From: Candidatus Nanoarchaeia archaeon
Lineage (GTDB): Archaea > Nanobdellota > Nanobdellia > Woesearchaeales > SKGA01
NCBI GenBank assembly: GCA_028691765.1
Contig: JAQUYS010000001.1
Coordinates: 1-55,588, forward strand
Reading direction: 5' to 3'
DNA length: 55,588 nt
The position numbers and the translations under genes are program-made. The notes beneath the pieces were generated by a model. The model was not told where the DNA came from. It did not search any database and worked only from the letters and a program-made list of their open reading frames with translations. Every line of letters starts with the position of its first letter. Positions within the stretch are counted from its first letter, which is position 1. Of this stretch, positions 16,842 through 52,278 are shown piece by piece.

Positions 16842-16859
16842 TATAATCACCTATAACTT

Positions 16860-27728: not shown

Positions 27729-28024
27729 AGTGTAGAATTACAATAAGCCACCTTTTGTAAAGGTCAAACAAAAAAAGATTTTGCGATACCTTTTGGCAGT
27801 ATTTGACTAAGCGTCTTACGACTTGCATCAACCAGGTGCTCAAATTTCATCCTTTCTTTTGGCGAAGTCAGTTTTTCACATCATTCCATAAACCAAAAAA
27901 GGTGTATTTCTGTACGGTTTACCAATCATATTCTGATTCTTGACTTTCATCAAGTGGTCTTGCACAAAGCATAGATGGGCGGACTTTCCTAAGGATTTAA
28001 CCCTAAACTACCTAGTAATCCTAC
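27729..28024 (-). ncRNA. rnpB: RNase P RNA
   Basis: Minus-strand reading: the 5' GUAGGAUUAC pairs with the 3' GUAAUUCUAC (P1). CR-I is UUAGGAAAGUCCGCCCAU. CR-V-like is ACAAAAGGUGGCUUAU, with GGUGGCUU able to pair with AAGUCCGCC (P4, one bulged nucleotide). TATA box at -27 and an oligo-U run (UUUUUCUUU) directly after the 3' end. Locally GC-rich. Confidence 0.88.
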
Positions 28025-31168: not shown

Positions 31169-31618
31169 ATCTTTAATTAAAAAAATAATTAAACCTGAAG
31201 ATAAAATCAACATAACTAAATTAACTATTTTTTCTGTGAAGCTACCAACTACTAAAGGACCACTAATTTTAAACCCGAGCATAAATAAATCTATTCCGGA
31301 TTTTGTAAACATGTCTTCAATTAAATGCAATATATATCCTAATGAAAAAAATATTGCTATAGAGACATTAAAAAAATTCAAAATATATGCTGAAATCAAA
31401 ACTGAATAGATTGAATGAAAAAATCCTCTGTGTGTAAAGAAAAAACCTATAATTTTAAATTTTCGACCTATTATTGAATTCATTTTATCTATGTCTGGAA
31501 ACAAAATTCCAATTAGAAAAACTATTGATAGAAAAATTGTTTTTGTAGATATTCCTAAAAGGAATAAAGAGATTAATGAAATTAAAATTCCTGTATTAAG
31601 GTGTGTTTTACCTTCCAT
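31151..31618 (-). CDS. Membrane-bound metal-dependent hydrolase, YdjM/DUF457 family
   Basis: MEGKTHLNTG, LFPDIDK, THRGFFHS and HLIEDMFTKSG motifs on a 4-5 TM scaffold. Confidence 0.68.
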   Translation of the reverse strand: MEGKTHLNTGILISLISLFLLGISTKTIFLSIVFLIGILFPDIDKMNSIIGRKFKIIGFFFTHRGFFHSIYSVLISAYILNFFNVSIAIFFSLGYILHLIEDMFTKSGIDLFMLGFKISGPLVVGSFTEKIVNLVMLILSSGLIIFLIKDLLFFF

Positions 31619-32339
31619 ATTTAGTCTCCAAATAAGCTATGTGTGTGATTTTATTTGAATCTTTATTAATTAGCGTTTGTTCAAACTCCAAAGGATATTG
31701 CATTATTACGTGTGGATGAAATGAATAACTTTTATACTTAAATGGATAATTGTTAAGAAGTTTGAAATAAAATTCGGGGGATAGATGAAAAACTTCCAAG
31801 GATAAATAATCATCTAAAGGAAAAATCAAATATGAACTTGTACTTATTTCAGTTATGGGGCTTGGAAAAAACATATTTCTAAAAATTGAGAAAACTGAAG
31901 CGTCGTAAGTATAATCATATTTCTTTAGTGAAAATAAAGTATTTAAATTAATCATCCTATATGGTGCTCTAAATCCTTTAATAGTTATGTTGTATTGTTC
32001 TTCTAAAATTTGTTTACATCCCTGAAGTTCATATTCTTTTAAAGATTTATTTGCGAAAGGCAATATTGAATGATTTTGTGTGTGACAAGAAATTTCATGT
32101 CCTTGTTCTAACATTAGGGGAATCATATTCGGAAGATTTTTTTGAAATTCAATAGTTACAAAAAACGTTGCTTTGGTATTGGTTTTTTCTAAAATAGATA
32201 ATAATTCTAACATTACTGTTTCATTGTCAGGAGATTCTGTATCGAAACTAATTAACAACACATCTTGAGAGAAAATATAAACACATGTAGAAAAAAATAA
32301 AAATAAAAGTAATATTAAACCATATTTATTAAGATTCAT
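31608..32339 (-). CDS. Secreted polysaccharide deacetylase (CE4 / NodB homology domain)
   Basis: Signal peptide MNLNKYGLILLLFLFFSTCVYIFSQ. CE4 motifs LISFDTES (variant of TFDDG), HEISCHTQNH (HxxxH) and FRAPY (RxPY). Confidence 0.72.
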   Translation of the reverse strand: MNLNKYGLILLLFLFFSTCVYIFSQDVLLISFDTESPDNETVMLELLSILEKTNTKATFFVTIEFQKNLPNMIPLMLEQGHEISCHTQNHSILPFANKSLKEYELQGCKQILEEQYNITIKGFRAPYRMINLNTLFSLKKYDYTYDASVFSIFRNMFFPSPITEISTSSYLIFPLDDYLSLEVFHLSPEFYFKLLNNYPFKYKSYSFHPHVIMQYPLEFEQTLINKDSNKITHIAYLETKYGR

Positions 32340-33560: not shown

Positions 33561-34190
33561 TTATTTTAAGGCTTGAAAGATTTGTTCTATTTCTTTTTGA
33601 GGATATCCTTGGGAGATTAGATTGTTTTTTATATCTACTTGGGAATAACCTTGAGAAAGTAAAGATCGAACATATTCTTTTAATTGAAGGTTTATAGTGG
33701 GTTGTTTTTTATTGAGTTTAAATAATTTAAATAATAAAAATATTAAAAGAAGTATTAAAATAGATAATGTAGTCATTAATAGAATATTTGTTGTTTTTAA
33801 CTCAGTTGTTGGTTGGTTGTAAGTTTGTGTTTGCTCTTCTATATCTTGATTAGTTGTGATGGATAGTTGATTATTTGCGATTAATATTTCTTCTATTGAT
33901 TGTATTAATTCAGTTAAAAGAATGTCTTGTTCTATTTGTTCTATGTTTTGATTGAAATATTCTTTTAAATTGAGTATTTGAATTGGAGATAAGTAGTTAT
34001 TTGATTGTGTAATTTGTAATGAATTTTGTTCTATGTCCAAATATATCCAATTTGTAGTTTTAGGTTGTTCTAACGAATATATTGTTAAAGGAGAATCTAG
34101 AAAATCAATTTCACATTTAGTTGCATTTATTGATGATGCTGAAATTATTATAAGTATTAACCACATTAAACTATATGAGAATTGGTTCAT
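33561..34190 (-). CDS. Type I membrane protein (signal peptide, ectodomain, TM, 45-aa cytoplasmic module); last gene of the pilin-like operon
   Basis: Signal peptide MWLILIIISASSINA and TM ILLMTTLSILILLLIFLLF. The C-terminal TINLQLKEYVRSLLSQGYSQVDIKNNLISQGYPQKEIEQIF is shared with the C-terminus of 48963..52259. 20-nt overlap with the upstream gene. Confidence 0.6.
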   Translation of the reverse strand: MNQFSYSLMWLILIIISASSINATKCEIDFLDSPLTIYSLEQPKTTNWIYLDIEQNSLQITQSNNYLSPIQILNLKEYFNQNIEQIEQDILLTELIQSIEEILIANNQLSITTNQDIEEQTQTYNQPTTELKTTNILLMTTLSILILLLIFLLFKLFKLNKKQPTINLQLKEYVRSLLSQGYSQVDIKNNLISQGYPQKEIEQIFQALK

Positions 34191-37100
34191 TTAATTTCAC
34201 CTCTTTTACATATCTTTTACAACAGCCTCCTAAAATATTCAAAGCTTGTGTATTTATGGTGTTTGTTTCTAAGATTGAAGATTCGCCACAAATTAAATCC
34301 ATTGCATTTTGTATTGAATCTGGATCTGAAATTCCTAACGAGGACAAATAAGCATTAATTTGAGTTTGAGCTAAATTGAATGAGTCTTTTATTTCTATGG
34401 CTTTTATAGTTATTTGTTGTTCATCAAGTTTATTTGTATTGTTGAATTGGTCTGTTGTTGTTATAGTGATCTGATAATTTTTATCTTTTTCAAATTTTAA
34501 ATCATTCATTCCATCAGTCATGACATAATATTGTTTTGTTTGATTATTGTAATATAATTTATTTAGTTTTAAAGGATATAAAGATGTTAATAACAAATTG
34601 CTTGAAAATTCTTCTTTTTCATCAAGTCGTAATAGTATGAATTCATTTTGAGCAAAATCATTTTCAGTTAAGTAAAGATTGAAAGCATAAATATCTTCAT
34701 TTAAATTTTCGAAATTGAAAGACACTAAAACTGCTTCTGTATTTATGCATTTTAATTGCTCTTCAATATTTAAATTTAATTTTGACCATGTTGGCGGAAT
34801 CTTATCTTCAACATAAGCTGTAAATGAAACATTTTGATGGTCTTTAAATGATGTGATGAATCTTTGATTCTTTTTGTTGGAATAACAAATTGGAGGATCT
34901 GTTTCTTTGTCTTGGTAATAATACCAAGCAACATTGTTTTTATCTGTTTTGTAGAGGGCAAATAAATTGTTGGACACATCCCAAGACTGGATTAAATTGC
35001 CAGTTAATGAATTTGGATTTAGGATATCTGGAAGTTGATATATTTCAAAGTCCATATATGAATTTACCTTATTTTGGTTATTTGTAAATTTAAAAGTTAA
35101 TGATGTGGCTAGATTTGTTTCACTGCTGGAATCAATGAATTTTAAAGGATTAAATTCTAAAGCCAAATCTGGATACGAAGGATTAGTTTTACTTAAACCT
35201 TTAACGTTAATTAAATTTTTAACATAATAATTTCCCTCGAAATCTGGGAGAATTTGAAACATTTCTCCTTCAGGATTCATATGTAAGGTGTCTAAATAAA
35301 TTGGACATATACACCCTTCTTGTTCGTTTTTTTGGCAATCAATCATTTGATCTACGAATGAACTTCTAAATGAATCTATTTGTTTGAAGACAAGCCATTC
35401 TTTTACTTCTCCTGAAAGTTGTTCAAAATTACCTTGAACTAAGTTGGAGAAGAAACCAATTGTTTGTTGTAGTTGTAAATCCTTCATTTTTTCTGGATGG
35501 ATGTATGTGTAATCACTTGTGTGAATTATTTTGGAATTTGTGTTTGAAAATTTGGTTATTGCTTTGTCTATGCATTCTGTTTGACTTAACATTAAGCAAT
35601 CGTTGGCTAAGTAGGATATGAATTGTTCTAATACGTCGTATTTTTTTAAATCTATGTTTGCTGTTGTGGCGTAAGAAGATGTTATGGATATATGATTTTG
35701 AGAGTATGGTTGATTCTTTAAATAAATTGCTTGTGGTACAGAATCACATTGTTCAGAAAGTCCTTTGCCCATTAAATGAGGGTATCCCCAAGATTCTTCA
35801 ACTTTATTTTGCAAAGTAGTTAAATTTGTAATTGATTTTGACCATACTTCGAAAAAATCAAGTTTAGTTAAATCAGACCATTCAATAGATTCTTTTGGTT
35901 TTTTCAAACGTTTACTCGCTTCATTAATTATTTTTTTAGCATTACCTGGTCCAGAATTATAACAAATAGCGGTAAAATAAAAATTGGGATTCTCTTTAGC
36001 CATATATCCTGCATCAATTAAATAATTTTGGCACCACTTTAAATATTGTGCTCCCGATTCTATTCCTAGCTGAAGATAATTTATAGTAGTTCCATCCACC
36101 ACCTTAGATTCTTTATTAACTAAACTATCCCATTTACAAATAGTTTTAACATCATTACATGCATTCGGACTGATTTGCATTAAACCACAAAAATTATTGT
36201 TTCTACATGCAACTTCTCCAGACAAATACTTTGAAAGAGATGCTCCACCTGTTTCCGCATAAATTATGGCTTTAATAAATTCGGAAGGCAATTTTGTTCT
36301 TGAAGAACTACGAAGTATCGAGTTCGTTATAGCTCCATTATTTTTTAAATCATATTCATTTAATTGTTGTGTAAATTCATAATAATTAATTTCTTGTTGT
36401 CCTTTTCTAATTTGATCTTGAAGCCAAGCAGTAGAATCAAAATAAATTGAACAACTTTTCTCGGTTTCTTCGACTACAACTTCTTCTGTTTGTTCAGTTT
36501 GAACATTCTCTCCAAGAGGCAAATACCTTACGATTGCAGAGATTTGAGGATATAATGAATATGTTTGTGAATTTCGTATAGGTTCTTTTACTAAACCAAC
36601 ACCACCGAAAGAATGTATCACTTCATTGTTTCCAACATAAACCATCACATGTCCCATTGTTGTTTGATGATCTTTTTTTGTGAAGATTATGTCTCCGGGT
36701 TTTGCTAGTTTTAAAAGCTCTTGAGGCGTCATGGCTTTATTTGTTTTCTCCCATACTACTTCATTATTGGATTCTTTAAATTGCTCATAAAGTGCATGTG
36801 CACTTAATCTCACATCGGCTATTTGAGAAATATTTGCATGTTTACCAACCCACCAAACCCAACCTGAACAATCAAAACCAGGAATCATTAAATCTGTCGA
36901 CCCTGGAATGTTTCTTGGAGGATAATTTTCTTCAAACATATTTGAACATTTACCTCCTTCAGTTGAATCTGCGAAAGCGTAAGGGGACATTCCTCCCCAA
37001 ACGTAAGGATATTTATTGCCTGCATACATATATGTATTATAAAGTTTTATAGCTACGTCTGCAATGCAATCATTTGTTTGACAATTAACGATTTTTTCTT

Positions 37101-37695
37101 CACCACAACCACCTAATGGTCCAACTGGATAAGACATCGTTTCAACTAAATATTGAAATTCTCGACCAACAATGGGAACTTGTATAGGTGTTTGAGGAAT
37201 TAATTTTATATTTAATTTTGGATTTGCATTTGTTTGTTGATTTTCATAAGTTTGCGTTAAATCAAAACTATATTGAAAATTCATTAAAGAAATTGATTTG
37301 AATTTAGATAAATGTGTTTGAAGTTTATCATCTAATGTTTGTTTAAAGAATAATTCAAAATCAGGAACACATATTTGTTTATCTTTAGATAGATAAATTT
37401 GGTGTACGTGTTCACCACAGGAAGTCTGTTGTTTCTGAAGGTCAAATTGAAATTCAGAGACTGTGCTTTTTGTTGAACTTTTTAAAGATTGGTCAATGTA
37501 AGATGCTACTTCTTCCGCGTTTTGGTTTGATTGTAAAATAGATTGTACATTTTCTCCAACAATGATGTTTATATCTGATTTTTGAGTATAATTTAAAATG
37601 AATATGAACAAAGCCATAAATATAAATATCGCAATAAAACTAAGTCCGAGCGCTTTTCTTGATTTTTTTAAGACCTTGCCAGTATAATTTTTCAT
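34171..37695 (-). CDS. Large surface protein with pilin-like/anchor N-terminus, NlpC/P60 cysteine endopeptidase domain and SLT lytic transglycosylase domain (peptidoglycan hydrolase)
   Basis: N-terminus KKSRKA then LGLSFIAIFIFMALFIFIL. NlpC/P60 (about aa 205-375): YPYVWGG, GFDCSGWVWWV (Cys276), AKPGDIIFT, GHVMVYVG, EVIHS. SLT (about aa 465-595): FIKAIIYAETGG (catalytic Glu), FCGLMQISP, AICYNSGPGN. The remaining roughly 580 C-terminal aa are unassigned. Confidence 0.85.
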   Translation of the reverse strand: MKNYTGKVLKKSRKALGLSFIAIFIFMALFIFILNYTQKSDINIIVGENVQSILQSNQNAEEVASYIDQSLKSSTKSTVSEFQFDLQKQQTSCGEHVHQIYLSKDKQICVPDFELFFKQTLDDKLQTHLSKFKSISLMNFQYSFDLTQTYENQQTNANPKLNIKLIPQTPIQVPIVGREFQYLVETMSYPVGPLGGCGEEKIVNCQTNDCIADVAIKLYNTYMYAGNKYPYVWGGMSPYAFADSTEGGKCSNMFEENYPPRNIPGSTDLMIPGFDCSGWVWWVGKHANISQIADVRLSAHALYEQFKESNNEVVWEKTNKAMTPQELLKLAKPGDIIFTKKDHQTTMGHVMVYVGNNEVIHSFGGVGLVKEPIRNSQTYSLYPQISAIVRYLPLGENVQTEQTEEVVVEETEKSCSIYFDSTAWLQDQIRKGQQEINYYEFTQQLNEYDLKNNGAITNSILRSSSRTKLPSEFIKAIIYAETGGASLSKYLSGEVACRNNNFCGLMQISPNACNDVKTICKWDSLVNKESKVVDGTTINYLQLGIESGAQYLKWCQNYLIDAGYMAKENPNFYFTAICYNSGPGNAKKIINEASKRLKKPKESIEWSDLTKLDFFEVWSKSITNLTTLQNKVEESWGYPHLMGKGLSEQCDSVPQAIYLKNQPYSQNHISITSSYATTANIDLKKYDVLEQFISYLANDCLMLSQTECIDKAITKFSNTNSKIIHTSDYTYIHPEKMKDLQLQQTIGFFSNLVQGNFEQLSGEVKEWLVFKQIDSFRSSFVDQMIDCQKNEQEGCICPIYLDTLHMNPEGEMFQILPDFEGNYYVKNLINVKGLSKTNPSYPDLALEFNPLKFIDSSSETNLATSLTFKFTNNQNKVNSYMDFEIYQLPDILNPNSLTGNLIQSWDVSNNLFALYKTDKNNVAWYYYQDKETDPPICYSNKKNQRFITSFKDHQNVSFTAYVEDKIPPTWSKLNLNIEEQLKCINTEAVLVSFNFENLNEDIYAFNLYLTENDFAQNEFILLRLDEKEEFSSNLLLTSLYPLKLNKLYYNNQTKQYYVMTDGMNDLKFEKDKNYQITITTTDQFNNTNKLDEQQITIKAIEIKDSFNLAQTQINAYLSSLGISDPDSIQNAMDLICGESSILETNTINTQALNILGGCCKRYVKEVKLNEPILI

Positions 37696-38231
37696 TTCAG
37701 ACCTGTAGGTATTTTCTTTTTATTTGAAGGTATGACTTCACAATATTCATAAATTAATTCAATTCTTGACTCTGTTTCTTCATTTGAAGATAAAGATATT
37801 TTGGATAACTCAGAACACTTACGAAAATCTTCAATACCATAAATATATTGATTTATATCTAGTTTTAAAGATTTTATAACTAAAGTTACTCTACTATTTG
37901 GAATCTGAGAGAAATATTTTTGAGCAGAATTTAAAATTATTTCTTTAGTTATAGTATCGATTTCAAAAATATTTTTATACGTTAGATCTGATAACAATTC
38001 GGCATTAGTTATGTGTTTGTTGTAATGTATTGAAGTTAATTGCGAGTATGTTGTTAAATGTTTTTGTGCAAAATAAGATGTACTATTTAGAGAAGTGATG
38101 CCTTCACTTTGACTTGTTTTTATAGAAGATATAAATACTATTAATAAAATAGAAATTATCATTGCCCCAACCACTATAACTAATTCTAACCAATCTGAAG
38201 GCGAAAATACTCCTTTCTTAGAGAATTTCAC
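37692..38231 (-). CDS. Pilin-like (class III signal) protein
   Basis: Proposed GTG start at 38231 forms a GTGA overlap with the upstream stop. This gives (M)KFSKKG then VFSPSDWLELVIVVGAMIISILLIVFI. The track start at 38288 would overlap the upstream gene by 60 nt. Confidence 0.55.
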   Translation of the reverse strand: MKFSKKGVFSPSDWLELVIVVGAMIISILLIVFISSIKTSQSEGITSLNSTSYFAQKHLTTYSQLTSIHYNKHITNAELLSDLTYKNIFEIDTITKEIILNSAQKYFSQIPNSRVTLVIKSLKLDINQYIYGIEDFRKCSELSKISLSSNEETESRIELIYEYCEVIPSNKKKIPTGLK

Positions 38232-38680
38232 TGTATCACCCTTATTGATGCAGGAATAACCTCTCCTGAATTTAATCTTAAAGCGCATGGTTGAGTTATT
38301 TCTTGATTCGTTATTTGTCCGGAAAGTTGAGCGGACATAGTTTTAACATTTTCCTCTTTTGGGTAAACAATTACTTCTATTTGTTTAATTAATTCATTAG
38401 AAGTAAAACAAGCTTTCAAGGTTTCATCATTTATTTTATTTACATCTAAAATATTTTGGTAAACTCGATCTGTATTGATATCTTGATATGCAAAACAATT
38501 ATTAGTTATTGCCTCATATGTTAAAATTATATCTAAATTATCTGGAAGGGGATATTTTTTTTCAGCAGAATTTTGCATTGTGGCGGCTTGTAATGGAACA
38601 TAAACCGAAAGTAAAATTATTAAAATAATGTATAATGGCACATCGTCAGATATATTTGATTTTTTGCCTAGTCTCAACAT
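38228..38680 (-). CDS. Secreted/pilin-like protein
   Basis: MLRLGKKS then NISDDVPLYIILIILLSVYV. Own TATA box 27 nt upstream of the ATG. Confidence 0.5.
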   Translation of the reverse strand: MLRLGKKSNISDDVPLYIILIILLSVYVPLQAATMQNSAEKKYPLPDNLDIILTYEAITNNCFAYQDINTDRVYQNILDVNKINDETLKACFTSNELIKQIEVIVYPKEENVKTMSAQLSGQITNQEITQPCALRLNSGEVIPASIRVIQ

Positions 38681-38702
38681 ATACTTATTTTAAGCTTAAT
38701 TC

Positions 38703-38710
38703 TTTATAAA
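38703..38710 (-). promoter_or_regulatory. Internal TATA box within the pilin-like operon
   Basis: TTTATAAA is centred about 27 nt upstream of the ATG at 38680, inside the 41-nt gap after the stop at 38722. Confidence 0.45.
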
Positions 38711-38721
38711 TATTGAGATTT

Positions 38722-39570
38722 TCACTCAAAAATAGATGTAATTGATGCCCCTAACAGTTCTTCAAGTTCATTTGTTGTTTCTTGTTTAAATTTCTTTTCT
38801 AATTCAATAATTATTTCGTTTGAATTGCAATTAGTGCACATAAAAGGAATATCGTATAATGAGAAGGAATTAGGAATGTCTAAATTTAATTGATTTAATT
38901 TTTGATTTAGTTTTGTTGCTAGAGGTCCCAATAACTCTTGATTAGATGATGAATATTTAATAGTGGTCTTATCTAAATTAGAAACATTAAATATTATGTG
39001 AACTTTTGCAGATTCTTTAGTTTCGGATTTTATCAAAGGAGTAGCAATTTTATTGAATGAAATTAAAATTTCATTTATGTTTGGATCATTTATGGAAACG
39101 TACAAATATTTTTCTGTAAATTGTTGCGATAAAGAAATTGTTTGTGAAGGGTTTGAAGTTCCTTTTGAAAAAGATAGTTTATTGTATGTACGATCTATGG
39201 TTAATTGTGAATAAGGTATTTGTTTGTCTTCTGAATAGATAATTAAACCTAGGGGTGCAATTATATTTTGATCTCGATCATATGCTTGACTATATGCATT
39301 ATAATCACATAAAACTGCAGAAATAGAATTTTCATCAAATTTCATACAACGATTTTCAACATCTAATTGAGGATTAAAATAAATGTTGAAATTATTGGGT
39401 AAATAAGTAATTGTTTTAGTTGTGAAAGTTGTATCTAAAACAAGAGCTCTACTTACGGCCCCTTCATAAGAGACTTTACTAGGAGCGTATAATATTGCAG
39501 ACCCGATAATTATTGCAAATATGATGAACCCTAAGACGCTTAACATATCTCCTTTTTTATTATGAAACAA
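38722..39570 (-). CDS. Pilin-like (class III signal) protein
   Basis: MFHNKKG then DMLSVLGFIIFAIIIGSAILYA. 11-nt overlap with the upstream gene. Confidence 0.6.
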   Translation of the reverse strand: MFHNKKGDMLSVLGFIIFAIIIGSAILYAPSKVSYEGAVSRALVLDTTFTTKTITYLPNNFNIYFNPQLDVENRCMKFDENSISAVLCDYNAYSQAYDRDQNIIAPLGLIIYSEDKQIPYSQLTIDRTYNKLSFSKGTSNPSQTISLSQQFTEKYLYVSINDPNINEILISFNKIATPLIKSETKESAKVHIIFNVSNLDKTTIKYSSSNQELLGPLATKLNQKLNQLNLDIPNSFSLYDIPFMCTNCNSNEIIIELEKKFKQETTNELEELLGASITSIFE

Positions 39571-40915
39571 TTTCTTCTACCTTTTTTATTTCGAAAAAGT
39601 TTTCTTGATTCCAAGATATTTTATGTTTATCTCCGGTTTCGCATTCAATTAAAATTAAATCTTGAGTCACATATTCATAATCATCAAAACAAAAATTAGT
39701 TTGATTTGGCAATTCAAATAACAAATCAGTTTCAAATTTTTCTCTCCACCCCCCCATGTATGTCGACATCAAATAAGTTCCTTCTAAAAAATCAATGTTA
39801 ATTTTTATTTTTTGACCAACTTCTTCCGCAGATTCAAAAGGTTTTACAAAATGCCATGGATTAAAATCAGAAGATTTGGAATAATATTCTTTAACTTCTG
39901 ATTGACCAAATTGATTGAGGGGTTTAAAATCCCTAAAATAAACAACGATTAATTCAAACGCACGTTCATCAATGATTGAATCTAGGAAATCCTTATTTGC
40001 AGAATAGAGTGAATTTATAGTTACACCGATAAAATTGGAATATTTTTTATCTTGCAAATTATATTTTGTTAAATAAATTTGTACGGGCCATTTATCAAAA
40101 CCATATTCTATGGAATGTAATGAAGATGCTCCAAATCCTCCTAAAACCAAACCACCTGTCCAAAATTGCTCAAATTGTAATCTTTGTGCAATTTGCTCAT
40201 TATGTATTTTTGAAAATTGTTTAAAAAAATAATCATCATTATCCAATATATTAAATACTTTTAAAGACAATATTTCGAGAGAAATAGGATATTTATTTAC
40301 ATTTGACTTAAATTCAGATGTAACTTGTTGAAAATATTCTAATTTTCCTCGTCCATCTATAAATTGTGAATTTTGATTAGGAGCAGTGATACAATACGGT
40401 TCATTCAAACTAATTCCTTCAAAAACATTTTCATCTAGTAAATTTAATTTAGGTTCGTTATTTTCTTTTATAATATCCCATAATTTTAAATCATCTACAT
40501 AACAAATACATGCTCGATCATAACATGATGAAAGTTCAGGTCTTATGAAGTAAATATATGAATTGGTTGCTTTATCCGTTAAACGTATATCTCCTCTACC
40601 TTTTGAAAAAAACAAAATATATTCATTTTCTAAAAACGAAATTTCATCGGTTCTAAGCCATTCTGCATTTGAATAAACATCAACATCATAATACTCTCCT
40701 AAAAATTCTTCTTTAAAAGAAATCCCTTTATTCAAATCTAAATCAACTAATTTTTGCTCTATTTGGGACAACATCATGACGTTATTAACAAATTCTGTTT
40801 TGGTTGTTTGACGAGCATATAAACTTCCTTGAGTAAATAAAAAGTAAAGAAGTATAACTACGATAAGTATGCTCACCATGTGTTCCCAAAGTAACTCAAA
40901 TCCTTTTTTATTCAT
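39560..40915 (-). CDS. Pilin-like (class III signal) protein, 451 aa
   Basis: The start at ATG 40915 forms an ATGA overlap with the upstream stop. MNKKG then FELLWEHMVSILIVVILLYFLF. Confidence 0.6.
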   Translation of the reverse strand: MNKKGFELLWEHMVSILIVVILLYFLFTQGSLYARQTTKTEFVNNVMMLSQIEQKLVDLDLNKGISFKEEFLGEYYDVDVYSNAEWLRTDEISFLENEYILFFSKGRGDIRLTDKATNSYIYFIRPELSSCYDRACICYVDDLKLWDIIKENNEPKLNLLDENVFEGISLNEPYCITAPNQNSQFIDGRGKLEYFQQVTSEFKSNVNKYPISLEILSLKVFNILDNDDYFFKQFSKIHNEQIAQRLQFEQFWTGGLVLGGFGASSLHSIEYGFDKWPVQIYLTKYNLQDKKYSNFIGVTINSLYSANKDFLDSIIDERAFELIVVYFRDFKPLNQFGQSEVKEYYSKSSDFNPWHFVKPFESAEEVGQKIKINIDFLEGTYLMSTYMGGWREKFETDLLFELPNQTNFCFDDYEYVTQDLILIECETGDKHKISWNQENFFEIKKVEEIVS

Positions 40916-41445
40916 GATGATTTTTCCTCTTTGGGTTGGCATTTTATAATATAATAAACCTCCTCTTCATTTTCACCTGTTAATGTATTTAAAACGGAAG
41001 GATTTGAATCTATTTGCAGAATAAATCTTTTCAAATCATTTATTTTAGCATCTAAAGGAATTTTGCTTTTTAAACATGTTATTTGTTCGCATAAGATTTT
41101 TTGTGCGTCAGATGGACTTTTACTACATACGCCTGAATCATCTAATAAAACATATTGTTCCCACAAATATTTCGGAATAAAATCGGTTGATGTGTACCAA
41201 AATAAGAGTTTATTTGAAGTTAAATATTTATCCTTACACTCTTCGAAAATTTCTTCATTTAATATATATCCTTCCGTACCATTACATCCTATGGTGGGAA
41301 TTAAATCCATATATGCTGCAGTTGCTTTAGGATAAAAATCGTTTGAGAAGCCAATCAATAAAAACACAATTATGCCCCCCATTATTACAACTATTAAAAG
41401 TTCCATTAAAAAACTTATACCTTTTTTATCATTCATAATATTCAC
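40912..41445 (-). CDS. Pilin-like (class III signal) protein
   Basis: (MNI)MNDKKG then ISFLMELLIVVIMGGIIVFLLIG. The GTG at 41445 overlaps the upstream TGA (GTGA); the ATG at 41436 is an alternative start. Confidence 0.6.
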   Translation of the reverse strand: MNIMNDKKGISFLMELLIVVIMGGIIVFLLIGFSNDFYPKATAAYMDLIPTIGCNGTEGYILNEEIFEECKDKYLTSNKLLFWYTSTDFIPKYLWEQYVLLDDSGVCSKSPSDAQKILCEQITCLKSKIPLDAKINDLKRFILQIDSNPSVLNTLTGENEEEVYYIIKCQPKEEKSS

Positions 41446-42521
41446 CTACAAAAGTCAAGCCACCTTATTAAATATGAAACAGATTCAACATTTGGAAACC
41501 CAATTCCTTCAACGTTGAATAAAGGATTGTATTGATCTAAACTTAAAATAAATTCCTTATCTTCATCACCTAATTTTTCGATACTTGGGAAAAAAACAAA
41601 AAATTCAGATTCCTCAACGTTAGTGTTTGGGAGTTTGGTTTTTAACTCATTTGCAAGTATTTGATTTTCTGTAGAATCTAATCTCAATAATAAATGTCCA
41701 TTAATAGAAATCATGCGCCTATATTCTAAATCACTTACAGAATTTATATTTTTATCATGTTTAAACCAATATAACTCCGGAACGAATTCCTCGTTAATTT
41801 TATTATTTGATGGTGAAATGCCAATTAGTGACAAAGGATAAAAATGCTTAATTCCTTCAGTTATTCTATTATATGTTCCATAAATACTTTGATATTCTAA
41901 AAAATGTTCTTCAGTATCTCCAATAATATTTACTTTCGAACCACAATAATCTTTTAAAGTCCAAATCATGGCAAATTCAGGAATTCCTGCAGTTTCTACA
42001 GTCCATTCATTGGGATTTCCTGCAATTATGGCTACATGTTTATTTTTTAAAAAGGGTAGATTTTCATACGTCGCATATTGATACACGTTATTTAATTCTG
42101 TACGAACATATACTTTTAATCCAATACCATCATCTATTAATTGAATGGAATATCTTTTATCGACTGGGAAAGTATCATAATAAATTAAATGCTTATCTTT
42201 ATTTGAATAATACGGATCTCCTTGTTTAGAATATCGTATGTATGTTGAATTAAACATTTGACTCAACATTAAATCGAGATACTCTCTAAATTCTTGATCT
42301 AATTCGGATATTGCATTATATCTTATTTCAGTAGTTCCTGTTTCTAAATCAATCCCAAAATAATTTCCTAAATTAGTTTTATCAGTTAATTGGTTTGTTG
42401 AATCCGTTGCTTTATCTTTAAAAAGCCCAATAAAATCTAAAAAAATCAATCCTAAAATAACTGAAACTACGACTACGGCCACTATTGAGACTAATTGTTG
42501 GTTTGCTTTTTTATTAAACAT
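41442..42521 (-). CDS. Pilin-like (class III signal) protein, 359 aa
   Basis: MFNKKA then NQQLVSIVAVVVVSVILGLIFL. The start codon overlaps the stop of the 52-aa ORF by 1 nt (TGATG). Confidence 0.6.
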   Translation of the reverse strand: MFNKKANQQLVSIVAVVVVSVILGLIFLDFIGLFKDKATDSTNQLTDKTNLGNYFGIDLETGTTEIRYNAISELDQEFREYLDLMLSQMFNSTYIRYSKQGDPYYSNKDKHLIYYDTFPVDKRYSIQLIDDGIGLKVYVRTELNNVYQYATYENLPFLKNKHVAIIAGNPNEWTVETAGIPEFAMIWTLKDYCGSKVNIIGDTEEHFLEYQSIYGTYNRITEGIKHFYPLSLIGISPSNNKINEEFVPELYWFKHDKNINSVSDLEYRRMISINGHLLLRLDSTENQILANELKTKLPNTNVEESEFFVFFPSIEKLGDEDKEFILSLDQYNPLFNVEGIGFPNVESVSYLIRWLDFCR

Positions 42522-42679
42522 CAGTCTCCTCCAGGAATTAACGAATCAGATTTAGTATAAAGCAAGTAAGATAAATATAATACTACACATATAGTTACCA
42601 GCGTTATAATTATTGTCAAAAGAGATTGTCCTTTTTTATTAAATTTTAAATTTAGGATATTTATAATTTCTTTAATCAT
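42521..42679 (-). CDS. Mini pilin-like protein, 52 aa (not in the ORF track)
   Basis: My translation is MIKEIINILNLKFNKKGQSLLTIIITLVTICVVLYLSYLLYTKSDSLIPGGD. ATGA overlap with the upstream stop and TGATG overlap with the downstream start. It exactly fills the apparent gap between the two ORFs. Confidence 0.6.
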   Translation of the reverse strand: MIKEIINILNLKFNKKGQSLLTIIITLVTICVVLYLSYLLYTKSDSLIPGGD

Positions 42680-43674
42680 TCTAAATCACCAAAATATATT
42701 TTTCTACACATTAATCTTTCTGAAATATCTAATGGGGAAATCAAAATAAAAGATACTTGTTTATCAAAAACTTCCTTCGAGATATCTCCGTAAGAAATTC
42801 CTTCAAATTGACTTAAACCATTTACTAATCTTTGGGAAGTTTCGACCCATTTTTTTATATTACTATTTACTGTTATTATATCTGAACCAACTTTAATGGG
42901 ATTGTATATGAACGGCGGATTGAACATATATCCTCCTATTATTTGAAAATTTAGTAATGCGGTTTCAGTAGTTGTTGGATCTTTAGGAGGTTGAAATAAG
43001 GAGATAGTATATTTTTGATTCGGGATGTATTCTGTAGGAATGAATAAAATTTTCCCAGTATCTATGCCTGCATAAGCGGTAAGGTAATCATAATACGTCA
43101 TCACTGTTTTTAAACCATCTTTAGTTACAGCATAATCTGTTTTTTTAAGAAAATCATATAATTCAAATGAATTTAAAGGTGTTTCGGGAAGATATGTCGA
43201 ATCTTCAATTTCAAATTCCAATAAAGTTACACATTCAGGTTTATATTGAGGAAATTTAGATGTAAGATAATTTCTAAAAACAGATTTATCTGCCCAAATA
43301 TCAGTTATTGTTCCTGCGCCCGACATCCACCAAACTTTTGCCATTTTATCGGCGATTTTTTTAGCGACTGCAAATTTTTTATTTGACTCGTTAGAAATCG
43401 GTTCAGGAACATTTTTTCTAGAAATATCTATTGTTTCATATATTGTTGAACATTTTTGAGTAAATAAAGAGACTTCTGCAGAAACATCTCCAATTCCTAT
43501 TTCACCACTAGTTCCAGTTTGTAATTTTAGTGAAGCTAAACATAATGCCCCACTTGAAGATGTTTTATCAACTATAAATAGTTCTTTTTGTAATAATTGA
43601 AAAAGTAATAATGCTGAAACTAATAAAACTATTAAAATTCCTATGTATTTAATTCCTGAGCTTGCTTTTTTCAT
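42676..43674 (-). CDS. Pilin-like (class III signal) protein, 332 aa
   Basis: Internal start at ATG 43674 gives MKKA then SSGIKYIGILIVLLVSALLLF, matching the sibling N-termini. The track extension MGQICIICCLVCSNFYHNKKIYISLK looks non-coding. Confidence 0.55.
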   Translation of the reverse strand: MKKASSGIKYIGILIVLLVSALLLFQLLQKELFIVDKTSSSGALCLASLKLQTGTSGEIGIGDVSAEVSLFTQKCSTIYETIDISRKNVPEPISNESNKKFAVAKKIADKMAKVWWMSGAGTITDIWADKSVFRNYLTSKFPQYKPECVTLLEFEIEDSTYLPETPLNSFELYDFLKKTDYAVTKDGLKTVMTYYDYLTAYAGIDTGKILFIPTEYIPNQKYTISLFQPPKDPTTTETALLNFQIIGGYMFNPPFIYNPIKVGSDIITVNSNIKKWVETSQRLVNGLSQFEGISYGDISKEVFDKQVSFILISPLDISERLMCRKIYFGDLE

Positions 43675-43782
43675 TTTTAAGGAAATATATATTTTTTTGT
43701 TATGATAAAAATTGCTGCAAACAAGGCAACATATAATGCATATTTGACCCATTCCTGCATCTGTGCTTTTTTGAATTTCATT

Positions 43783-45222
43783 TTATTTATTTACACAATC
43801 TCCATTCCAATCGTTCCAAGATGGTTCAACATATTTACATCCGCCTTTAATTCCACAAGCATTTGCTAAACATTCATCTCGATCGTCACTATAATTTGAG
43901 CAGGAATTTATTTTTGAACAAGATAAACATTCATTTACATTTTTATAATCCCAATAACATTTGGTACCTATACAATCATTAGAATTACATGTGAACAGAG
44001 TTTTATAACTTGAACAATCCACAATCCCCTCATCACAAGCTTGACAAGAACCATCATCTAAATAACATTTTGTACTTTCAGATGTTCTTTTAGTTATATC
44101 CAAACAAGCATTCGCAGAATATTCTGAACAAGATTTTATTGGTTGGTTCTTAATCACTATGATTGAATCGCAATCTTTTAATTCAACATCATATGGTTTA
44201 GAAAATGCAGTTTGATTTTTTTTCAAATAAACACATAAATGATCAGTTTTTAAATCCAATAAATCTATAGGAGTATTAAAATTAAATTGAGTCAACAAAA
44301 GAGAATTTCCTTGTTGAGGAACGTAATTCACACAACTTTCTGAATAAACTATTCTATAATTGCCTTGCGAAAAAGTCTCTCCTAAAACTTTGAGTACACA
44401 ATAATTTTTATTTAATATTTTGGTTGTTGAAAAATAAACCTCTTCAGAATTTGGTTGGGAATCAAAGGTATATTTTATTTGTGTAGGTGTCGTTGAAGAA
44501 GATGCATCTGCACTCATTTTAATACTTACAATGGACGTTTCTTTTTCAGTTGAATAATCTTTTTTTTGCTTAACTGTGAATTTTACTTCATAAATTTGGG
44601 AAGGAAGTCCTTTAAAATCTTTTAACATATATGCTTTATTTGAACAATCAGTCCATTCTCTAGTTAACGCAGTCAACTCTTGTGAATTGCTGCTAACCAT
44701 TAATTTACAATAATCTCCATCCTCGTAGGCATTTGCAAATTCTAATCTAAAAGGACCATTATTGAAATTATCAATTACATGATAAGTTGAAATCAATGTA
44801 TCGTTGTATTTTATATAAATTTTATTCGAATCTTTTACAAATCCATCATTAGGTGGAATCCAAGAAGATTGTCCGATTGTTGCTTTTACACCAAAATGAC
44901 TTCTTTGAACAGAAGATGCTTCTTCCTTATATTTTTCAAATTCTTCTTCTTTTCCTGAGATACTTTTACAACATTTCATATCAACATCATCGACGTTTTT
45001 ATTAAAAAAAGACATTTCTTTAGATAATGTTAAATCACATTTTCCTGGAACAAGAACGCCTCCAAAAGTTTCACATGCGCTTAATTTATTTAGTAGATTT
45101 CCTGATGGCAAAATTGCTCCTCGTAATCCCATAAATAAAACTAATATTCCTAATACTGCAATAACTACAAAAGACATTGGTAAGCCAGACCCTTTTCTAG
45201 AATTAAATAGTTTCATCATCAC
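43783..45222 (-). CDS. Pilin-like (class III signal) protein with Cys-rich C-terminal module, 479 aa
   Basis: MMMKLFNSRKG then SGLPMSFVVIAVLGILVLFMGL. The last roughly 110 aa contain more than 20 Cys (CSEYSANACLD...CQACDEGIVDCSSYKTLFTCNSNDCIGTKCYWD...). GAGGT SD upstream. Confidence 0.65.
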   Translation of the reverse strand: MMMKLFNSRKGSGLPMSFVVIAVLGILVLFMGLRGAILPSGNLLNKLSACETFGGVLVPGKCDLTLSKEMSFFNKNVDDVDMKCCKSISGKEEEFEKYKEEASSVQRSHFGVKATIGQSSWIPPNDGFVKDSNKIYIKYNDTLISTYHVIDNFNNGPFRLEFANAYEDGDYCKLMVSSNSQELTALTREWTDCSNKAYMLKDFKGLPSQIYEVKFTVKQKKDYSTEKETSIVSIKMSADASSSTTPTQIKYTFDSQPNSEEVYFSTTKILNKNYCVLKVLGETFSQGNYRIVYSESCVNYVPQQGNSLLLTQFNFNTPIDLLDLKTDHLCVYLKKNQTAFSKPYDVELKDCDSIIVIKNQPIKSCSEYSANACLDITKRTSESTKCYLDDGSCQACDEGIVDCSSYKTLFTCNSNDCIGTKCYWDYKNVNECLSCSKINSCSNYSDDRDECLANACGIKGGCKYVEPSWNDWNGDCVNK

Positions 45223-45238
45223 AGTACCTCATCGTTTG

Positions 45239-45257
45239 AAAAAGAAAAAAAATAAAA
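45239..45257 (-). terminator. Oligo-U tract directly after the small pilin gene (candidate archaeal terminator/attenuator)
   Basis: The minus-strand RNA reads UUUUAUUUUUUUUCUUUUU, starting 3 nt after the stop at 45260..45262. Confidence 0.45.
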
Positions 45258-45259
45258 TT

Positions 45260-45523
45260 TTAACCTAGAGGAATACAACAGTATCCTTTATCTGAACCTA
45301 ATTTAGTTTTACAGCCTGAATCTGGTTTAGGAACATCTGTACCTTCACATGCAGATATTGAATCTTCACAATATCCTCCCATTCCTTCACAACTTGTTGA
45401 TTCAGCTAAATTTCCGCCTTGTTTCATTAACAAAACTGCTAAAATTACCAAAACCAAAAGAGCGATAGCTGCTATGATTATGATGTTCATAGACATTTCC
45501 GAGCCTTTTTTATTCCAAAACAT
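45260..45523 (-). CDS. Small Cys-rich pilin (candidate major pilin), 87 aa
   Basis: MFWNKKG then SEMSMNIIIIAAIALLVLVILAVLLM, followed by a 45-aa head with 6 Cys. GAGGTG SD 6 nt upstream. 85-nt AT-rich promoter-like gap upstream and an oligo-U tract downstream. Confidence 0.7.
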   Translation of the reverse strand: MFWNKKGSEMSMNIIIIAAIALLVLVILAVLLMKQGGNLAESTSCEGMGGYCEDSISACEGTDVPKPDSGCKTKLGSDKGYCCIPLG

Positions 45524-45608: not shown

Positions 45609-46343
45609 TTATAAAGAAGTTTTCATGCTTTCTAGGCTTTCTTTTAGCCTCAGAAGAAGCTTAGGAGTTATTTTGGATGTAGAGGTTTCCAAGCTTTTTT
45701 GATTTAAGTTTAAATAAGACATTATTTCTCGGGCTTGATTTTTTGTTTTTCCTTTAAAAGAATTGATTAAAGCGTTCTTTATTTTGCCTTTGTGTTTGAA
45801 AACTGAAACTAAAATGTCTTCAATTATGGAAAGTTTTCTTTTCTTGAATGAAATTAACCAAGAATCGACTCGAGGGGGTGGAGAAAATGATTTTTTTAAA
45901 ACTTTTTGTTCAAACTTAATCTTATAACATATATTTGATATTAAACTTATTGTTGATTTGTTCTCTTCTAAATTTTCTTTAAAGTTTTCACCAACTATTA
46001 AAATTAATTCTTCAATATCCTCAATTATTGCTTTTTTCATTATTTGATCAGATAAATGATAAGGTATGTTTGAAACTATTTTGTAACCTTTCCAAGAATG
46101 TTTTAAGGCATCATCAAATACTATTTTAGCATTATTTATTTGATTTAAAGAAGAATATCTTTTGTCTATTTCAAAAGCTAAAACTTCACATTGTTTAACT
46201 AATTCTTTTGTTAAAACTCCTTCTCCTGCACCTATTTCAATAACTTTGTCAGTTTTAGAAAGATTTGCGATGTGAATTTCTTTTTTTAAAACTTCTTCAT
46301 CTATTAAGAAATGTTGTCCTTTGTCAAGATTTTTCTTTTCCAT
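45609..46343 (-). CDS. ksgA: 16S rRNA (adenine1518/1519-N6)-dimethyltransferase KsgA/Dim1
   Basis: GQHFLIDEEVL, SAM motif VIEIGAGEGVLTKEL, EIDKRY, and IVSNIPYHLS (the NxPY catalytic motif, NIPY). Confidence 0.88.
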   Translation of the reverse strand: MEKKNLDKGQHFLIDEEVLKKEIHIANLSKTDKVIEIGAGEGVLTKELVKQCEVLAFEIDKRYSSLNQINNAKIVFDDALKHSWKGYKIVSNIPYHLSDQIMKKAIIEDIEELILIVGENFKENLEENKSTISLISNICYKIKFEQKVLKKSFSPPPRVDSWLISFKKRKLSIIEDILVSVFKHKGKIKNALINSFKGKTKNQAREIMSYLNLNQKSLETSTSKITPKLLLRLKESLESMKTSL

Positions 46344-46832
46344 TTAACTCACACAAATTCCTAATTCAACCATAGCAGTACCAGGATATAAAGATATTGG
46401 TTGTCTTCCAGGAGGATATTTTCCTTTGATTTGTCCGCCAGGCATGCAATCTTCTGTAGCGTTAGTATAATTCGTAAAAGAATTATATTCAATAACTAAA
46501 CCGTATGGAACTTGCCAAAGTATTAAAGTGTCTTCTAAAATTTGTTCTGCAACTTCTTCTACTTGCTCGCAGGATGTTTTTGAATCACAACGAATTTGTT
46601 TTGACTTAGCACAATCTACAATTAATTCTTGTATGTTAGTACCACAAGTAGATGTGTCTAGAAAGACTTCTATAAAACTCATAGATAATTCACTGTTAGC
46701 ATATGTTTTAAATTGATCAATACCTGGATTAAGGTCATCTTTAACTGAATTAGAAACGTAAAAAAGCATAGCAATAGTTACAATTAAAACAATGAATATT
46801 AAACCCATAATTTCTATTTGTGCTTTTTTCAT
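46344..46832 (-). CDS. Class III signal peptide (MKKAQ-type) pilin-like protein
   Basis: MKKA then QIEIMGLIFIVLIVTIAMLF. Its stop codon abuts the ksgA ATG (TAAATG). Confidence 0.62.
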   Translation of the reverse strand: MKKAQIEIMGLIFIVLIVTIAMLFYVSNSVKDDLNPGIDQFKTYANSELSMSFIEVFLDTSTCGTNIQELIVDCAKSKQIRCDSKTSCEQVEEVAEQILEDTLILWQVPYGLVIEYNSFTNYTNATEDCMPGGQIKGKYPPGRQPISLYPGTAMVELGICVS

Positions 46833-47335
46833 TTTCTCACATACCTCGTTACATAAAGTACGCCAAAAGCATATTGATTTGTTACAGGATCATATATTGA
46901 AGTTGGAATCTTAACAGGAGTTCCAAAACTCATAACTACATCATTTACATCAAAGTCATTAAGATATATTTCAATAGGTTCAGCTTCAGTTTCAGGATAA
47001 ATTTGTTCTATTATAATTTCTACGTTACCTAGTTTGTCAAAATAATATTCTCTAGAAAGTTCAGGATATTCATCAATTAATTTTTGAAAGGCTTGAATTT
47101 TGGATTTGTCAAACGATGATTGTTGTTTAACGCTACCTGGAGAATAAATTAATTCAGGAAGGTTTGCAACTACTTGTGCTAGGGCAGCAGCATCCAAGTT
47201 TCCCAAAGTATCTACTTTTTCTTCTATGGTCGCTTTCTCACCTCTGAACGCAAAAATCAATCCCATCATTATTAATAAAATTATTATGATTAATGCAAAG
47301 ATTGTTTCTCCCATTTCAAGTTGTGCTTTTTTCAT
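46829..47335 (-). CDS. Class III signal peptide (MKKAQ-type) pilin-like protein
   Basis: The start at ATG 47335, 2 nt after the upstream stop, gives MKKA then QLEMGETIFALIIIILLIMMGLIF. The track start at 47356 overlaps the upstream gene. Confidence 0.6.
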   Translation of the reverse strand: MKKAQLEMGETIFALIIIILLIMMGLIFAFRGEKATIEEKVDTLGNLDAAALAQVVANLPELIYSPGSVKQQSSFDKSKIQAFQKLIDEYPELSREYYFDKLGNVEIIIEQIYPETEAEPIEIYLNDFDVNDVVMSFGTPVKIPTSIYDPVTNQYAFGVLYVTRYVRK

Positions 47336-47337
47336 TT

Positions 47338-48423: not shown

Positions 48424-48443
48424 TTTAGACCTTGTTTAAAGCG

Positions 48444-52259: not shown

Positions 52260-52278
52260 AGTTCCTCTTCTTTAATTT

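Follow-up and report, generated by a model that had tools for sequence, protein, structure and literature searches.

Gene and catalytic modules

The window analysed here is a 55,588-nucleotide (nt) stretch of contig JAQUYS010000001.1 (positions 1 to 55,588, assembly GCA_028691765.1), which belongs to a Candidatus Nanoarchaeia archaeon of the order Woesearchaeales. Its minus strand carries an open reading frame (ORF) of 1174 amino acids (aa), hereafter the hydrolase, in which an NlpC/P60 cysteine peptidase and an SLT lytic transglycosylase stand behind a short basic leader and a single hydrophobic helix. The hydrolase ORF, whose coordinates are exact, shares 4 nt with the gene upstream and 20 nt with the one downstream. 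Within a compact run of co-directional genes from position 45523 down to 33561, it is the last of the large ones (Table 1). A sequence-only reading of this stretch had recognized the two enzymes from short motifs. All of these motifs and their catalytic residues were present at the places it gave, and both domains passed the gathering cutoffs of the corresponding Pfam hidden Markov models, SLT marginally, with the catalytic residues aligned.

The AlphaFold model of the whole hydrolase had a mean predicted local distance difference test (pLDDT) of 75.6, with values mostly above 90 in region 420–650. The protein contains 25 cysteines, several in conserved pairs, and only one transmembrane (TM) helix, at the N-terminus, which fits an extracellular protein. 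Beyond the two enzymes, the all-beta region gave weak Ig/fn3/macroglobulin-like fold matches and is presumed to be a stalk or binding region. A scan against NCBIfam returned nothing meaningful for the hydrolase, and a search of the window for a second copy (paralogue) found none.

The NlpC/P60 module was matched by Pfam NLPC_P60 (PF00877; MEROPS C40) over aa 230–373 with an E-value of 1.1e-10 and 41.9 bits against a gathering cutoff of 23. Its signature comprises YPYVWGG (aa 229–235), GFDCSGWVWWV (aa 273–283), GHVMVYVG (aa 348–355), and EVIHS (aa 358–362), and the Cys-His-His triad is intact: Cys276 (nt 36868–36870), His349 (nt 36649–36651), and His361 (nt 36613–36615). In a sequence search of the PDB, GFDCSG and H..Y.GN..IH aligned with the catalytic Cys and His of Bacillus subtilis LytE (PDB 8i2d). 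Foldseek matched this part of the model to MepS (probability 1.00, target-normalised TM-score 0.53–0.59) and to NlpC1 of Trichomonas vaginalis (probability 1.0), so that the predicted structure has a papain-like NlpC/P60 fold. The whole hydrolase gave weak matches only in the PDB sequence search; the matches included the Tn916-like proteins CTn7-Orf16 and CTn1-Orf17. The PHROG match was 'minor tail protein' (E = 3e-9), and the best viral fold match, in BFVD, was a Bacillus phage tail lysin (E = 1.9e-8). These hits bear out the earlier remark that such a pairing of enzymes resembles the wall hydrolases of conjugation systems and phage tail lysins.

The SLT module was matched by Pfam SLT (PF01464) over aa 463–599 (E = 3.4e-5), at 23.8 bits against a cutoff of 21.3, a marginal pass. 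The motifs are AIIYAETGG (aa 476–484, with the catalytic Glu481 at nt 36253–36255), GLMQISP (aa 504–510), and CYNSGPGN (aa 578–585). In a profile built from 47 related proteins, Glu481 (AETGG), GLMQ (504–507), and YNSG (579–582) aligned with QES, GLmQ, and YNgG. The Glu was kept in 27 of 29 aligned relatives, with Ser or Gln in its place in some orthologues. Foldseek matched the module to the g-type lysozyme (GH23) 3gxk with a probability of 0.99 and a target-normalised TM-score of 0.55, and the model thus has a predicted lysozyme-like GH23 fold. Because the SLT segment alone found no match among PDB sequences, its identity rests on the Pfam match, the family profile, and the fold.

Table 1. 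Positions of the hydrolase, its modules, and other features of the window.
Feature	Position	Strand	Remarks
Hydrolase ORF, 1174 aa	34171..37695	-	multi-module murein hydrolase
Class III (prepilin-type) signal-like N-terminus or membrane anchor, aa 1–37	37585..37695	-	KKSRK, Ala15, one hydrophobic helix; AlphaFold2 helix 13–37
Conserved N-module, aa 38–195	37111..37584	-	fold without assignment; IGxxQ, CG..Y, CxP motifs
NlpC/P60 cysteine peptidase module, aa 196–392	36520..37110	-	insertion relative to orthologues without NlpC/P60
SLT/GH23 lytic transglycosylase module, aa 425–637	35786..36423	-	Glu481, GLMQ, YNSG; strain-variable cassette
Conserved Cys-rich helical scaffold module, aa 650–800	35296..35748	-	C700, C708, C787, C795, C797
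Conserved all-beta region, aa 801–1100	34396..35295	-	F958, D964, P968, Y1074, D1082, N1086
Nine co-directional upstream ORFs (87, 479, 358, 359, 177, 460, 282, 150, 198 aa)	37692..45523	-	[KR][KR][G/A/S] plus hydrophobic helix
87-aa ORF, operon head	45260..45523	-	Cys-rich C-terminal half; conserved in L001 (two copies), L003, L004
Downstream 209-aa ORF	33561..34190	-	N-terminal signal and C-terminal TM helix; overlaps hydrolase stop by 20 nt
Four further ORFs (162, 175, 361, 169 aa)	46344..48953	-	(K)KAQ plus hydrophobic N-termini
KsgA-type rRNA adenine dimethylase gene	45609..46343	-	splits the two prepilin-signal-like clusters
T2SSE-family ATPase	12214..14514	-	about 20 kb from operon
741-aa protein, about 10 TM helices	within 9996..14514	-	adjoins T2SSE ATPase
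Three proteins of 202–209 aa	15606..17489	-	5–6 TM helices each
Polysaccharide deacetylase	31608..32339	-	two genes downstream of hydrolase
Two very large Cys-rich proteins (1098 and 1076 aa)	48963..55509	-	directly upstream of locus
Archaeal RNase P RNA	27733..28023	-	Rfam RNaseP_arch, complete, 114.8 bits
tRNA match, 157 nt	9800..9956	-	Rfam; covers whole 71-position model

Family scaffold and exchangeable modules

A profile search of 1.84 billion representative proteins returned 4160 matches at E ≤ 1e-3, with 93 at E ≤ 1e-30. The family has a constant scaffold, made up of the N-module, the Cys-rich helical module (aa ~650–800), and a beta-rich C-module (aa ~900–1090), with variable inserts between these parts. 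When the best 155 matches were mapped onto the profile, 26 representatives had the full architecture of the window protein, 23 had no NlpC/P60 and kept the middle (SLT-region) part, and 17 consisted of the N-module, helical, and C modules only. The profile of the 47 related proteins without NlpC/P60 (33 with Pfam SLT) matched the hydrolase from end to end (E = 2e-80), and relative to it the NlpC/P60 module of the window protein is an insertion of ~250 aa. Two proteins without NlpC/P60, P0061 (M23 and SLT) and P0077 (SLT), lie in the same genomic slot directly before the genes for RPA and YdjM; because of this shared slot we regard them as orthologues rather than unrelated paralogues. No donor lineage could be named for the NlpC/P60 insert, bacterial matches being only ~30% identical.

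The identifiable cargo of the family consists of enzymes of bacterial peptidoglycan metabolism. A Pfam census of 35 members with NlpC/P60 found NLPC_P60 in 32, SLT in 14, GDSL in 4, the PF11860 muramidase in 3, CHAP, VanY, and M15 in 2 each, and Amidase_2, YkuD, and Glucosaminidase in 1 each. Among the 47 members without NlpC/P60, SLT was present in 33, M23 in 13, Amidase_2 in 9, Glucosaminidase and YkuD in 2 each, and Amidase_3, M15_4, 3D, and a polysaccharide deacetylase in 1 each. The exceptions were a few Ig/fn3-type repeats and weak or one-off LRAT and TPM domains. That the modules of the family are murein-directed is the strongest argument for murein, as opposed to pseudomurein or another archaeal polymer, as the substrate. 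Bacterial peptidoglycan as the substrate of the hydrolase, which the sequence-only reading had also proposed, is thus strongly supported by comparison of the orthologues.

A target other than murein, either the pseudomurein of methanogens or the archaeon's own envelope (as an autolysin or remodelling enzyme), was considered. NlpC/P60 enzymes cut gamma-glutamyl bonds, and pseudomurein contains such bonds too. A Woesearchaeota–methanogen partnership has been proposed, according to a citation within PMC9723730. No genes for murein or pseudomurein synthesis were found in the window. The SLT/GH23, PF11860 muramidase, Amidase_2/3, M23, VanY/M15, and YkuD modules of the family argue against such a target: these enzymes need N-acetylmuramic acid (MurNAc) or stems with D-amino acids, and pseudomurein has neither. 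Furthermore, archaeal peptidoglycan hydrolases are rare in the classes that make pseudomurein (PMC12352652). We consider a non-murein target very unlikely.

Variation at the catalytic positions bears on whether the modules act as enzymes throughout the family. Among 35 family representatives, the nucleophile column of the NlpC/P60 module holds Cys in 24, Ser in 8, Ala in 1, and Gly in 2 (11 of 35 without Cys), and the column of His349 holds His in 29 and another residue in 6. The flanking fold motifs GFD.SG, WW, GD, and Y.G are invariant even where the nucleophile has been lost, and the Cys-less versions have probably been kept for binding or structure as pseudo-enzymes. These substitutions, together with those of the SLT Glu, would suit a protein that is mainly an adhesin, in which hydrolase-like modules serve attachment by binding peptidoglycan and cutting plays a minor part or none; an attachment role was also suggested by Castelle et al. 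(PMC8204110). In the window protein, however, the triad and the SLT signature (Glu, GLMQ, YNSG) are all intact, and in most orthologues one catalytic module or more is undamaged. An adhesin in the main seems to us quite unlikely.

Exchange of a module was also seen at the level of strains. Compared with contig L088, which encodes the relative P0001, the window showed DNA identity of 98.4% and 96.5% over the 5.7 and 6.1 kb that flank the SLT cassette. Between these flanks, a 638-nt segment (window 35786..36423, aa 425–637; L088 6094..6716) gave no BLASTN match and was 59% identical in nucleotides and 45% in amino acids, whereas every 50-aa window lying wholly outside the cassette was 96–100% identical between the two hydrolases. 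The two cassettes differ as much as this segment does between the window protein and a 35%-identical orthologue. Both alleles have ~30% GC and keep the catalytic Glu, and the cassette is bounded by low-confidence linkers in the model (residues 395–411 and 661–665). Judged from the aligned sequences, the difference is most simply explained as a module-precise replacement, for which recombination with another DPANN allele would be the simplest source. No further alleles of the SLT cassette were found in metagenomes of the Joint Genome Institute (JGI), whether by exact flank sequence or by protein.

Archaeal setting, operon, and N-terminus

Archaeal features were found on both sides of the hydrolase locus. 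Rfam identified a complete archaeal RNase P RNA, and the window encodes RFC, NMD3, RNase HII, a Trm5/TYW2 methyltransferase, and an archaeal-type helicase, with the RPA gene adjoining the locus directly downstream. GC content lies at 26–32% across the window and at 28–30% in the hydrolase gene, the same as in the window as a whole. Among named relatives, the nearest carry the annotations 'C40 family peptidase [Candidatus Woesearchaeota archaeon]' and 'NlpC/P60 family protein [Nanoarchaeota archaeon]'. In a scan of one genome per prokaryotic species, relatives with both the N-module and NlpC/P60 occurred only in Woesearchaeota-type metagenome-assembled genomes (MAGs), and members of the Gaiellaceae, Thermoleophilia, and Clostridia matched the NlpC/P60 domain alone at ~30% identity. 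The archaeal RNase P RNA, the archaeal genes, and the restriction of relatives to Woesearchaeota establish the contig as archaeal and non-chimeric, in agreement with the earlier reading. The opposite view, that the contig is bacterial or chimeric and encodes an ordinary bacterial wall hydrolase, could draw on these bacterial matches. It is refuted by the archaeal RNA and the replication and translation genes on both sides, the uniform GC, the same gene order in several independent Woesearchaeota assemblies (including a contig of 1.07 Mb), and the confinement of full-length relatives to archaeal MAGs, and we give it next to no probability.

Two further observations concern the same scans. Hydrolase homologues are also held by MAGs titled 'uncultured Methanosarcinales archaeon' or 'Euryarchaeota archaeon SM23-78', covering the N-module and NlpC/P60 in L009, L010, and L011 and the NlpC/P60 region in L013 and L014; these record titles probably mislabel DPANN genomes. 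The 157-nt tRNA match in the window was not reported by ARAGORN and presumably contains an intron.

The nine ORFs upstream of the hydrolase each begin with a basic stretch, usually ending in KKG or KKA, followed by a single hydrophobic helix. The first, of 87 aa (MFWNKKGSEMSMNIIIIAAIALLVLVIL...), is a candidate for the major subunit; neither it nor its homologues had a Pfam match, and it found nothing relevant among PDB sequences. In the second cluster, beyond the KsgA-type gene, three ORFs begin with MKKAQxE and the 169-aa ORF with MKAQTS. No Pfam match was obtained at E ≤ 0.01 with the nine neighbours at full length, and the ORFs of the second cluster likewise had no significant match. For the 162-aa protein, the PDB sequence search gave nothing relevant and the homologue search found only two unnamed proteins.

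The locus is conserved in related genomes. L001, L003 (the 1.07-Mb contig), L004, and L005 have the same gene order, similar gene sizes, and the same N-terminal motif, and their hydrolases are only 24–35% identical to that of the window. Searches with phmmer showed the neighbours to be homologous position for position, the 87-, 150-, 162-, and 175-aa proteins being best conserved. In all four relatives RPA comes after the hydrolase, with YdjM and an ATP-binding cassette (ABC) transporter usually further on. In L001, L003, and L004 the homologous clusters are contiguous, with homologues of the 162- and 175-aa proteins directly upstream of the 87-aa homologue, and because of this adjacency we take the two clusters of the window to be one ancestral locus. 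The 209-aa ORF that follows the hydrolase is present in L004, L005, and L088 and absent in L001, L003, L086, and L087. Uniform composition and deep synteny led us to reject a recent horizontal transfer of the hydrolase, as the sequence-only reading had done from AT-richness by eye; gene order is kept even in relatives with an orthologue of only 24–35% identity.

Other genes of the window may be associated with the locus. The T2SSE-family ATPase and the adjoining 741-aa protein are candidates for the ATPase and platform of filament assembly, the platform being the presumed role of the latter. Upstream of the ATPase, three proteins of 202–209 aa had no significant Pfam match, and two of them begin with similar sequences; the genes at 9996..17489 may be assembly machinery for the filament-like locus. 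The polysaccharide deacetylase downstream (Polysacc_deac_1, E = 8.5e-20) has a signal-like hydrophobic stretch at its N-terminus, is found at the same place in L001 and L088, and could modify peptidoglycan or chitin. Of the two Cys-rich proteins encoded directly upstream of the locus, the one of 1098 aa combines a signal-like N-terminal stretch with a TM helix near residue 791 and an extended charged tail, and the one of 1076 aa has a weak fn3 match. Both may be surface or adhesion proteins.

The N-terminus of the hydrolase reads KKSRKA followed by LGLSFIAIFIFMALFIFIL, that is, a short basic leader, a small residue, and a hydrophobic run, which is the layout of a class III signal. Such signals are cleaved by a peptidase just behind the small residue, and the mature protein retains the hydrophobic helix. 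At the position that separates the dibasic pair from the helix, 39 of 39 aligned N-modules had G or A. Among 115 representatives, of which 109 could be scored, G occurred there in 55, A in 38, and S in 13 (106 of 109). The junction motif is common to 13 neighbouring ORFs, nine in the operon and four in the second cluster, and to all operon genes of the relatives. Invariance of this kind favours a class III-like signal, and is not required of a generic signal-anchor. In the AlphaFold model of aa 1–195 (pLDDT 80.7), a TM helix (15–39) is followed by a loop, a long helix (46–85), a third helix (113–130), and a beta-hairpin (142–167).

Proposed role, alternatives, and known systems

Taken together, the most probable picture, which we hold to be somewhat better than evenly balanced, is that of an anchored extracellular murein hydrolase that forms part of a surface assembly and opens the wall of a bacterial partner or prey. 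The hydrolase would be exported and kept anchored or assembled through its N-terminal helix, and the operon products may form one surface assembly, either of the type IV filament kind or a pseudopilus similar to the bindosome. A true filament within this picture has less than an even chance; in such a fibre the short 87-aa protein would be the major subunit. At a site of contact, the NlpC/P60 endopeptidase would cut stem peptides and the SLT/GH23 lytic transglycosylase the bonds between MurNAc and N-acetylglucosamine (GlcNAc), with the Cys-rich helical part and a beta-sandwich stalk completing the architecture towards the C-terminus. Peptidoglycan of the bacterial partner or prey would thus be opened locally. 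As nothing indicates that the archaeon makes murein itself, the wall that is cut has to be a foreign one.

Several observations weigh against this picture. Archaeal pilin models of Pfam (Pilin_N, Class_IIIsignal) gave no match even at E ≤ 10 in a scan of the hydrolase and 15 other locus proteins, among them 10 of the window and 4 from the loci of relatives, the nine neighbours being scanned as their N-terminal 75 aa. No credible fold neighbour of aa 1–195 was found in the PDB (best E > 0.8; PilX at E = 5, probability 0.04), and a loop lies between the TM helix and the helix after it, where pilins have an uninterrupted alpha-1 helix. Searched with a profile of the N-module, PDB sequences yielded no solved pilin, the sole match being the membrane anchor of the glucosaminidase SagB of Staphylococcus aureus (E = 1.9). 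A basic stretch with a TM helix is also typical of ordinary signal-anchors. The T2SSE ATPase lies 20 kb from the operon rather than within it, and no prepilin peptidase (A24) was found in the window, nor a G.GD-type motif in its polytopic proteins. On the enzymatic side, the Pfam SLT score is barely over its cutoff, and with Ser, Ala, or Gly in place of the NlpC/P60 Cys in about one third of the family, the conserved role may be binding. Membership in a pilin family, for which there was no Pfam, sequence-profile, or fold match, was rejected as a claim. Of the earlier description 'pilin-like', the N-terminal motif shared by the hydrolase and the operon stands, and homology to pilins does not; we use the label prepilin-signal-like.

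The main rival explanation holds that the hydrolase is a plain membrane-anchored surface enzyme with an uncleaved signal-anchor, and that the other operon products are likewise surface proteins anchored one by one. Neither a filament nor a pseudopilus would be involved, and the enzyme would still cut the murein of bacteria that it touches. The failure to match a pilin model or fold, the SagB anchor as sole PDB sequence match of the N-terminus, and the distance of the ATPase and the lack of a prepilin peptidase in the window all favour it. Yet the near-invariant G, A, or S at the junction of basic and hydrophobic segments, seen throughout the operon and in over 100 divergent proteins, is expected of a peptidase site and not of a generic anchor. 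The operon is moreover headed by a short, highly conserved 87-aa member, as in filament loci, and a T2SSE ATPase is encoded in the genome. The plain anchor is a serious though doubtful contender.

A different role would be scavenging, that is, the digestion of free or dead-cell peptidoglycan by a metabolically poor archaeon for the uptake of amino sugars and amino acids, with no attack on a specific host. The glycosidases, endopeptidases, amidases, and carboxypeptidases found across the orthologues would fully dismantle murein, and a secreted polysaccharide deacetylase, an ABC transporter, and major facilitator superfamily (MFS) transporters are encoded nearby. Amino acids derived from murein have been discussed as a supply for Pacearchaeota (PMC11537232). 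However, the enzyme is predicted to stay anchored instead of being released and is encoded in a conserved structural operon, no genes for uptake or catabolism of muropeptides were identified in that operon, and a swap that touches the SLT module alone is more suggestive of adaptation to particular targets. We consider scavenging alone fairly unlikely.

The preferred reading of an anchored, contact-acting hydrolase can be extended to a dedicated, vertically inherited apparatus for breaching walls that resembles a type IV filament. Such an apparatus would comprise an operon of 12–16 genes with prepilin-type signals and, at its end, a hot-swappable hydrolase, whose cassettes (SLT, NlpC/P60, M23, amidase, muramidase, and others) would recombine, near-identical strains included, to track the wall chemistry or defences of bacterial hosts or prey. 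We put this forward tentatively, at well below an even chance.

Large SLT proteins have been described in these archaea before. The family fam00969 comprises large, predicted extracellular SLT-domain proteins restricted to Woese- and Pacearchaeota (Castelle 2021, PMC8204110) and sits in a module of 51 co-occurring families, mostly of unknown function (PMC8204110). Woesearchaeota of Lake A carry GH23 genes and were assigned a 'vampiristic' lifestyle (Vigneron et al. 2022, PMC9723730). In these studies, SLT proteins were read as tools that bind or degrade bacterial walls, and bacterial hosts or prey were proposed (PMC8204110, PMC9723730). The hydrolase resembles these proteins in clade, large size, predicted extracellular location, SLT/GH23 domain, and genomic slot; unlike fam00969 in its published description, by which alone the two were compared, it has an intact NlpC/P60 module inserted before SLT. 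The accessible portions of the published fam00969 and GH23 descriptions make no mention of NlpC/P60, a prepilin-like N-terminus, a conserved operon, or module swapping.

In its presumed function, the hydrolase comes closest to two groups of enzymes: bifunctional wall hydrolases from the conjugation systems of Gram-positive bacteria, and phage tail lysins. The former include CwlT of ICEBs1, Tn916 Orf14-type proteins, PrgK, and TraG of pIP501. Like the hydrolase, they join a glycan-strand cleaver and an NlpC/P60 or CHAP endopeptidase in one membrane-anchored protein encoded in an operon for surface transport or filaments. They open the producer's own wall, whereas the producer here apparently has no murein. 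In addition, the order of the enzymes is reversed in the hydrolase (peptidase first), an extra N-module and a C-terminal scaffold of ~540 aa are present, and no conjugation genes lie nearby. Phage tail lysins are likewise multi-module murein hydrolases, borne on the virion, and breach a foreign wall from outside. In contrast to them, the locus holds no phage genes and is a vertically inherited chromosomal locus beside RPA.

Other systems share parts of the concept. The bindosome of Sulfolobus has substrate-binding proteins with class III signals. Modular type IV pilins such as PilB of Streptococcus sanguinis (PMC8179133) carry a functional module on a prepilin-type N-terminus. As with PilB and the bindosome, the hydrolase gene stands among others that encode putative prepilin-type signals. 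No pilin fold or pilin homology was detected for its N-module, however, and the accessible accounts of them describe no hydrolase cargo. Woldo and Danwoldo of Halogranum salarium are archaeal peptidoglycan hydrolases that killed bacteria experimentally (PMC12352652). The hydrolase is similarly archaeal, a murein hydrolase predicted to be exported and to be aimed at bacteria. Whereas Woldo and Danwoldo are small, soluble, and Tat-secreted with separate binding domains, it is large, anchored, and operon-encoded, with another kind of N-terminus. Hydrolases go unmentioned in a survey of type IV filament systems in archaea from 2026, and a full-text literature search found no publication that joins DPANN, NlpC, and peptidoglycan.

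Already known, then, though not taken into account by the sequence-only reading, are the large SLT proteins of Woese- and Pacearchaeota and the idea of bacterial hosts or prey. Within the searchable literature, the inserted NlpC/P60 module, the prepilin-signal-like N-terminus found throughout a collinear operon, the exchangeability of murein-hydrolase modules in an orthologous slot, and the strain-level swap of the SLT cassette appear to be new.

Woese- and Pacearchaeota are among the most abundant uncultured archaea, and their partners are still a question, as are archaea that live or prey on bacteria. The locus provides several handles on it: the chemotype preference of the enzyme pair, which could narrow the range of hosts, the predicted processing site at Ala15, the conserved operon, and the strain-variable SLT cassette. 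Among archaeal peptidoglycan hydrolases, which Nanoarchaeota carry especially often, Sec/Tat signals occur in only 32% (PMC12352652). The prepilin-like N-terminus suggests why surveys based on Sec/Tat found most archaeal peptidoglycan hydrolases 'signal-less', and a wall-breaching apparatus, if real, would explain why most DPANN peptidoglycan hydrolases lack such signals. Should the hydrolase only scavenge wall debris, it would still be part of the carbon-recycling role proposed for DPANN archaea. If the wall-breaching apparatus exists, it would be the molecular basis of an episymbiosis or predation of archaea on bacteria.

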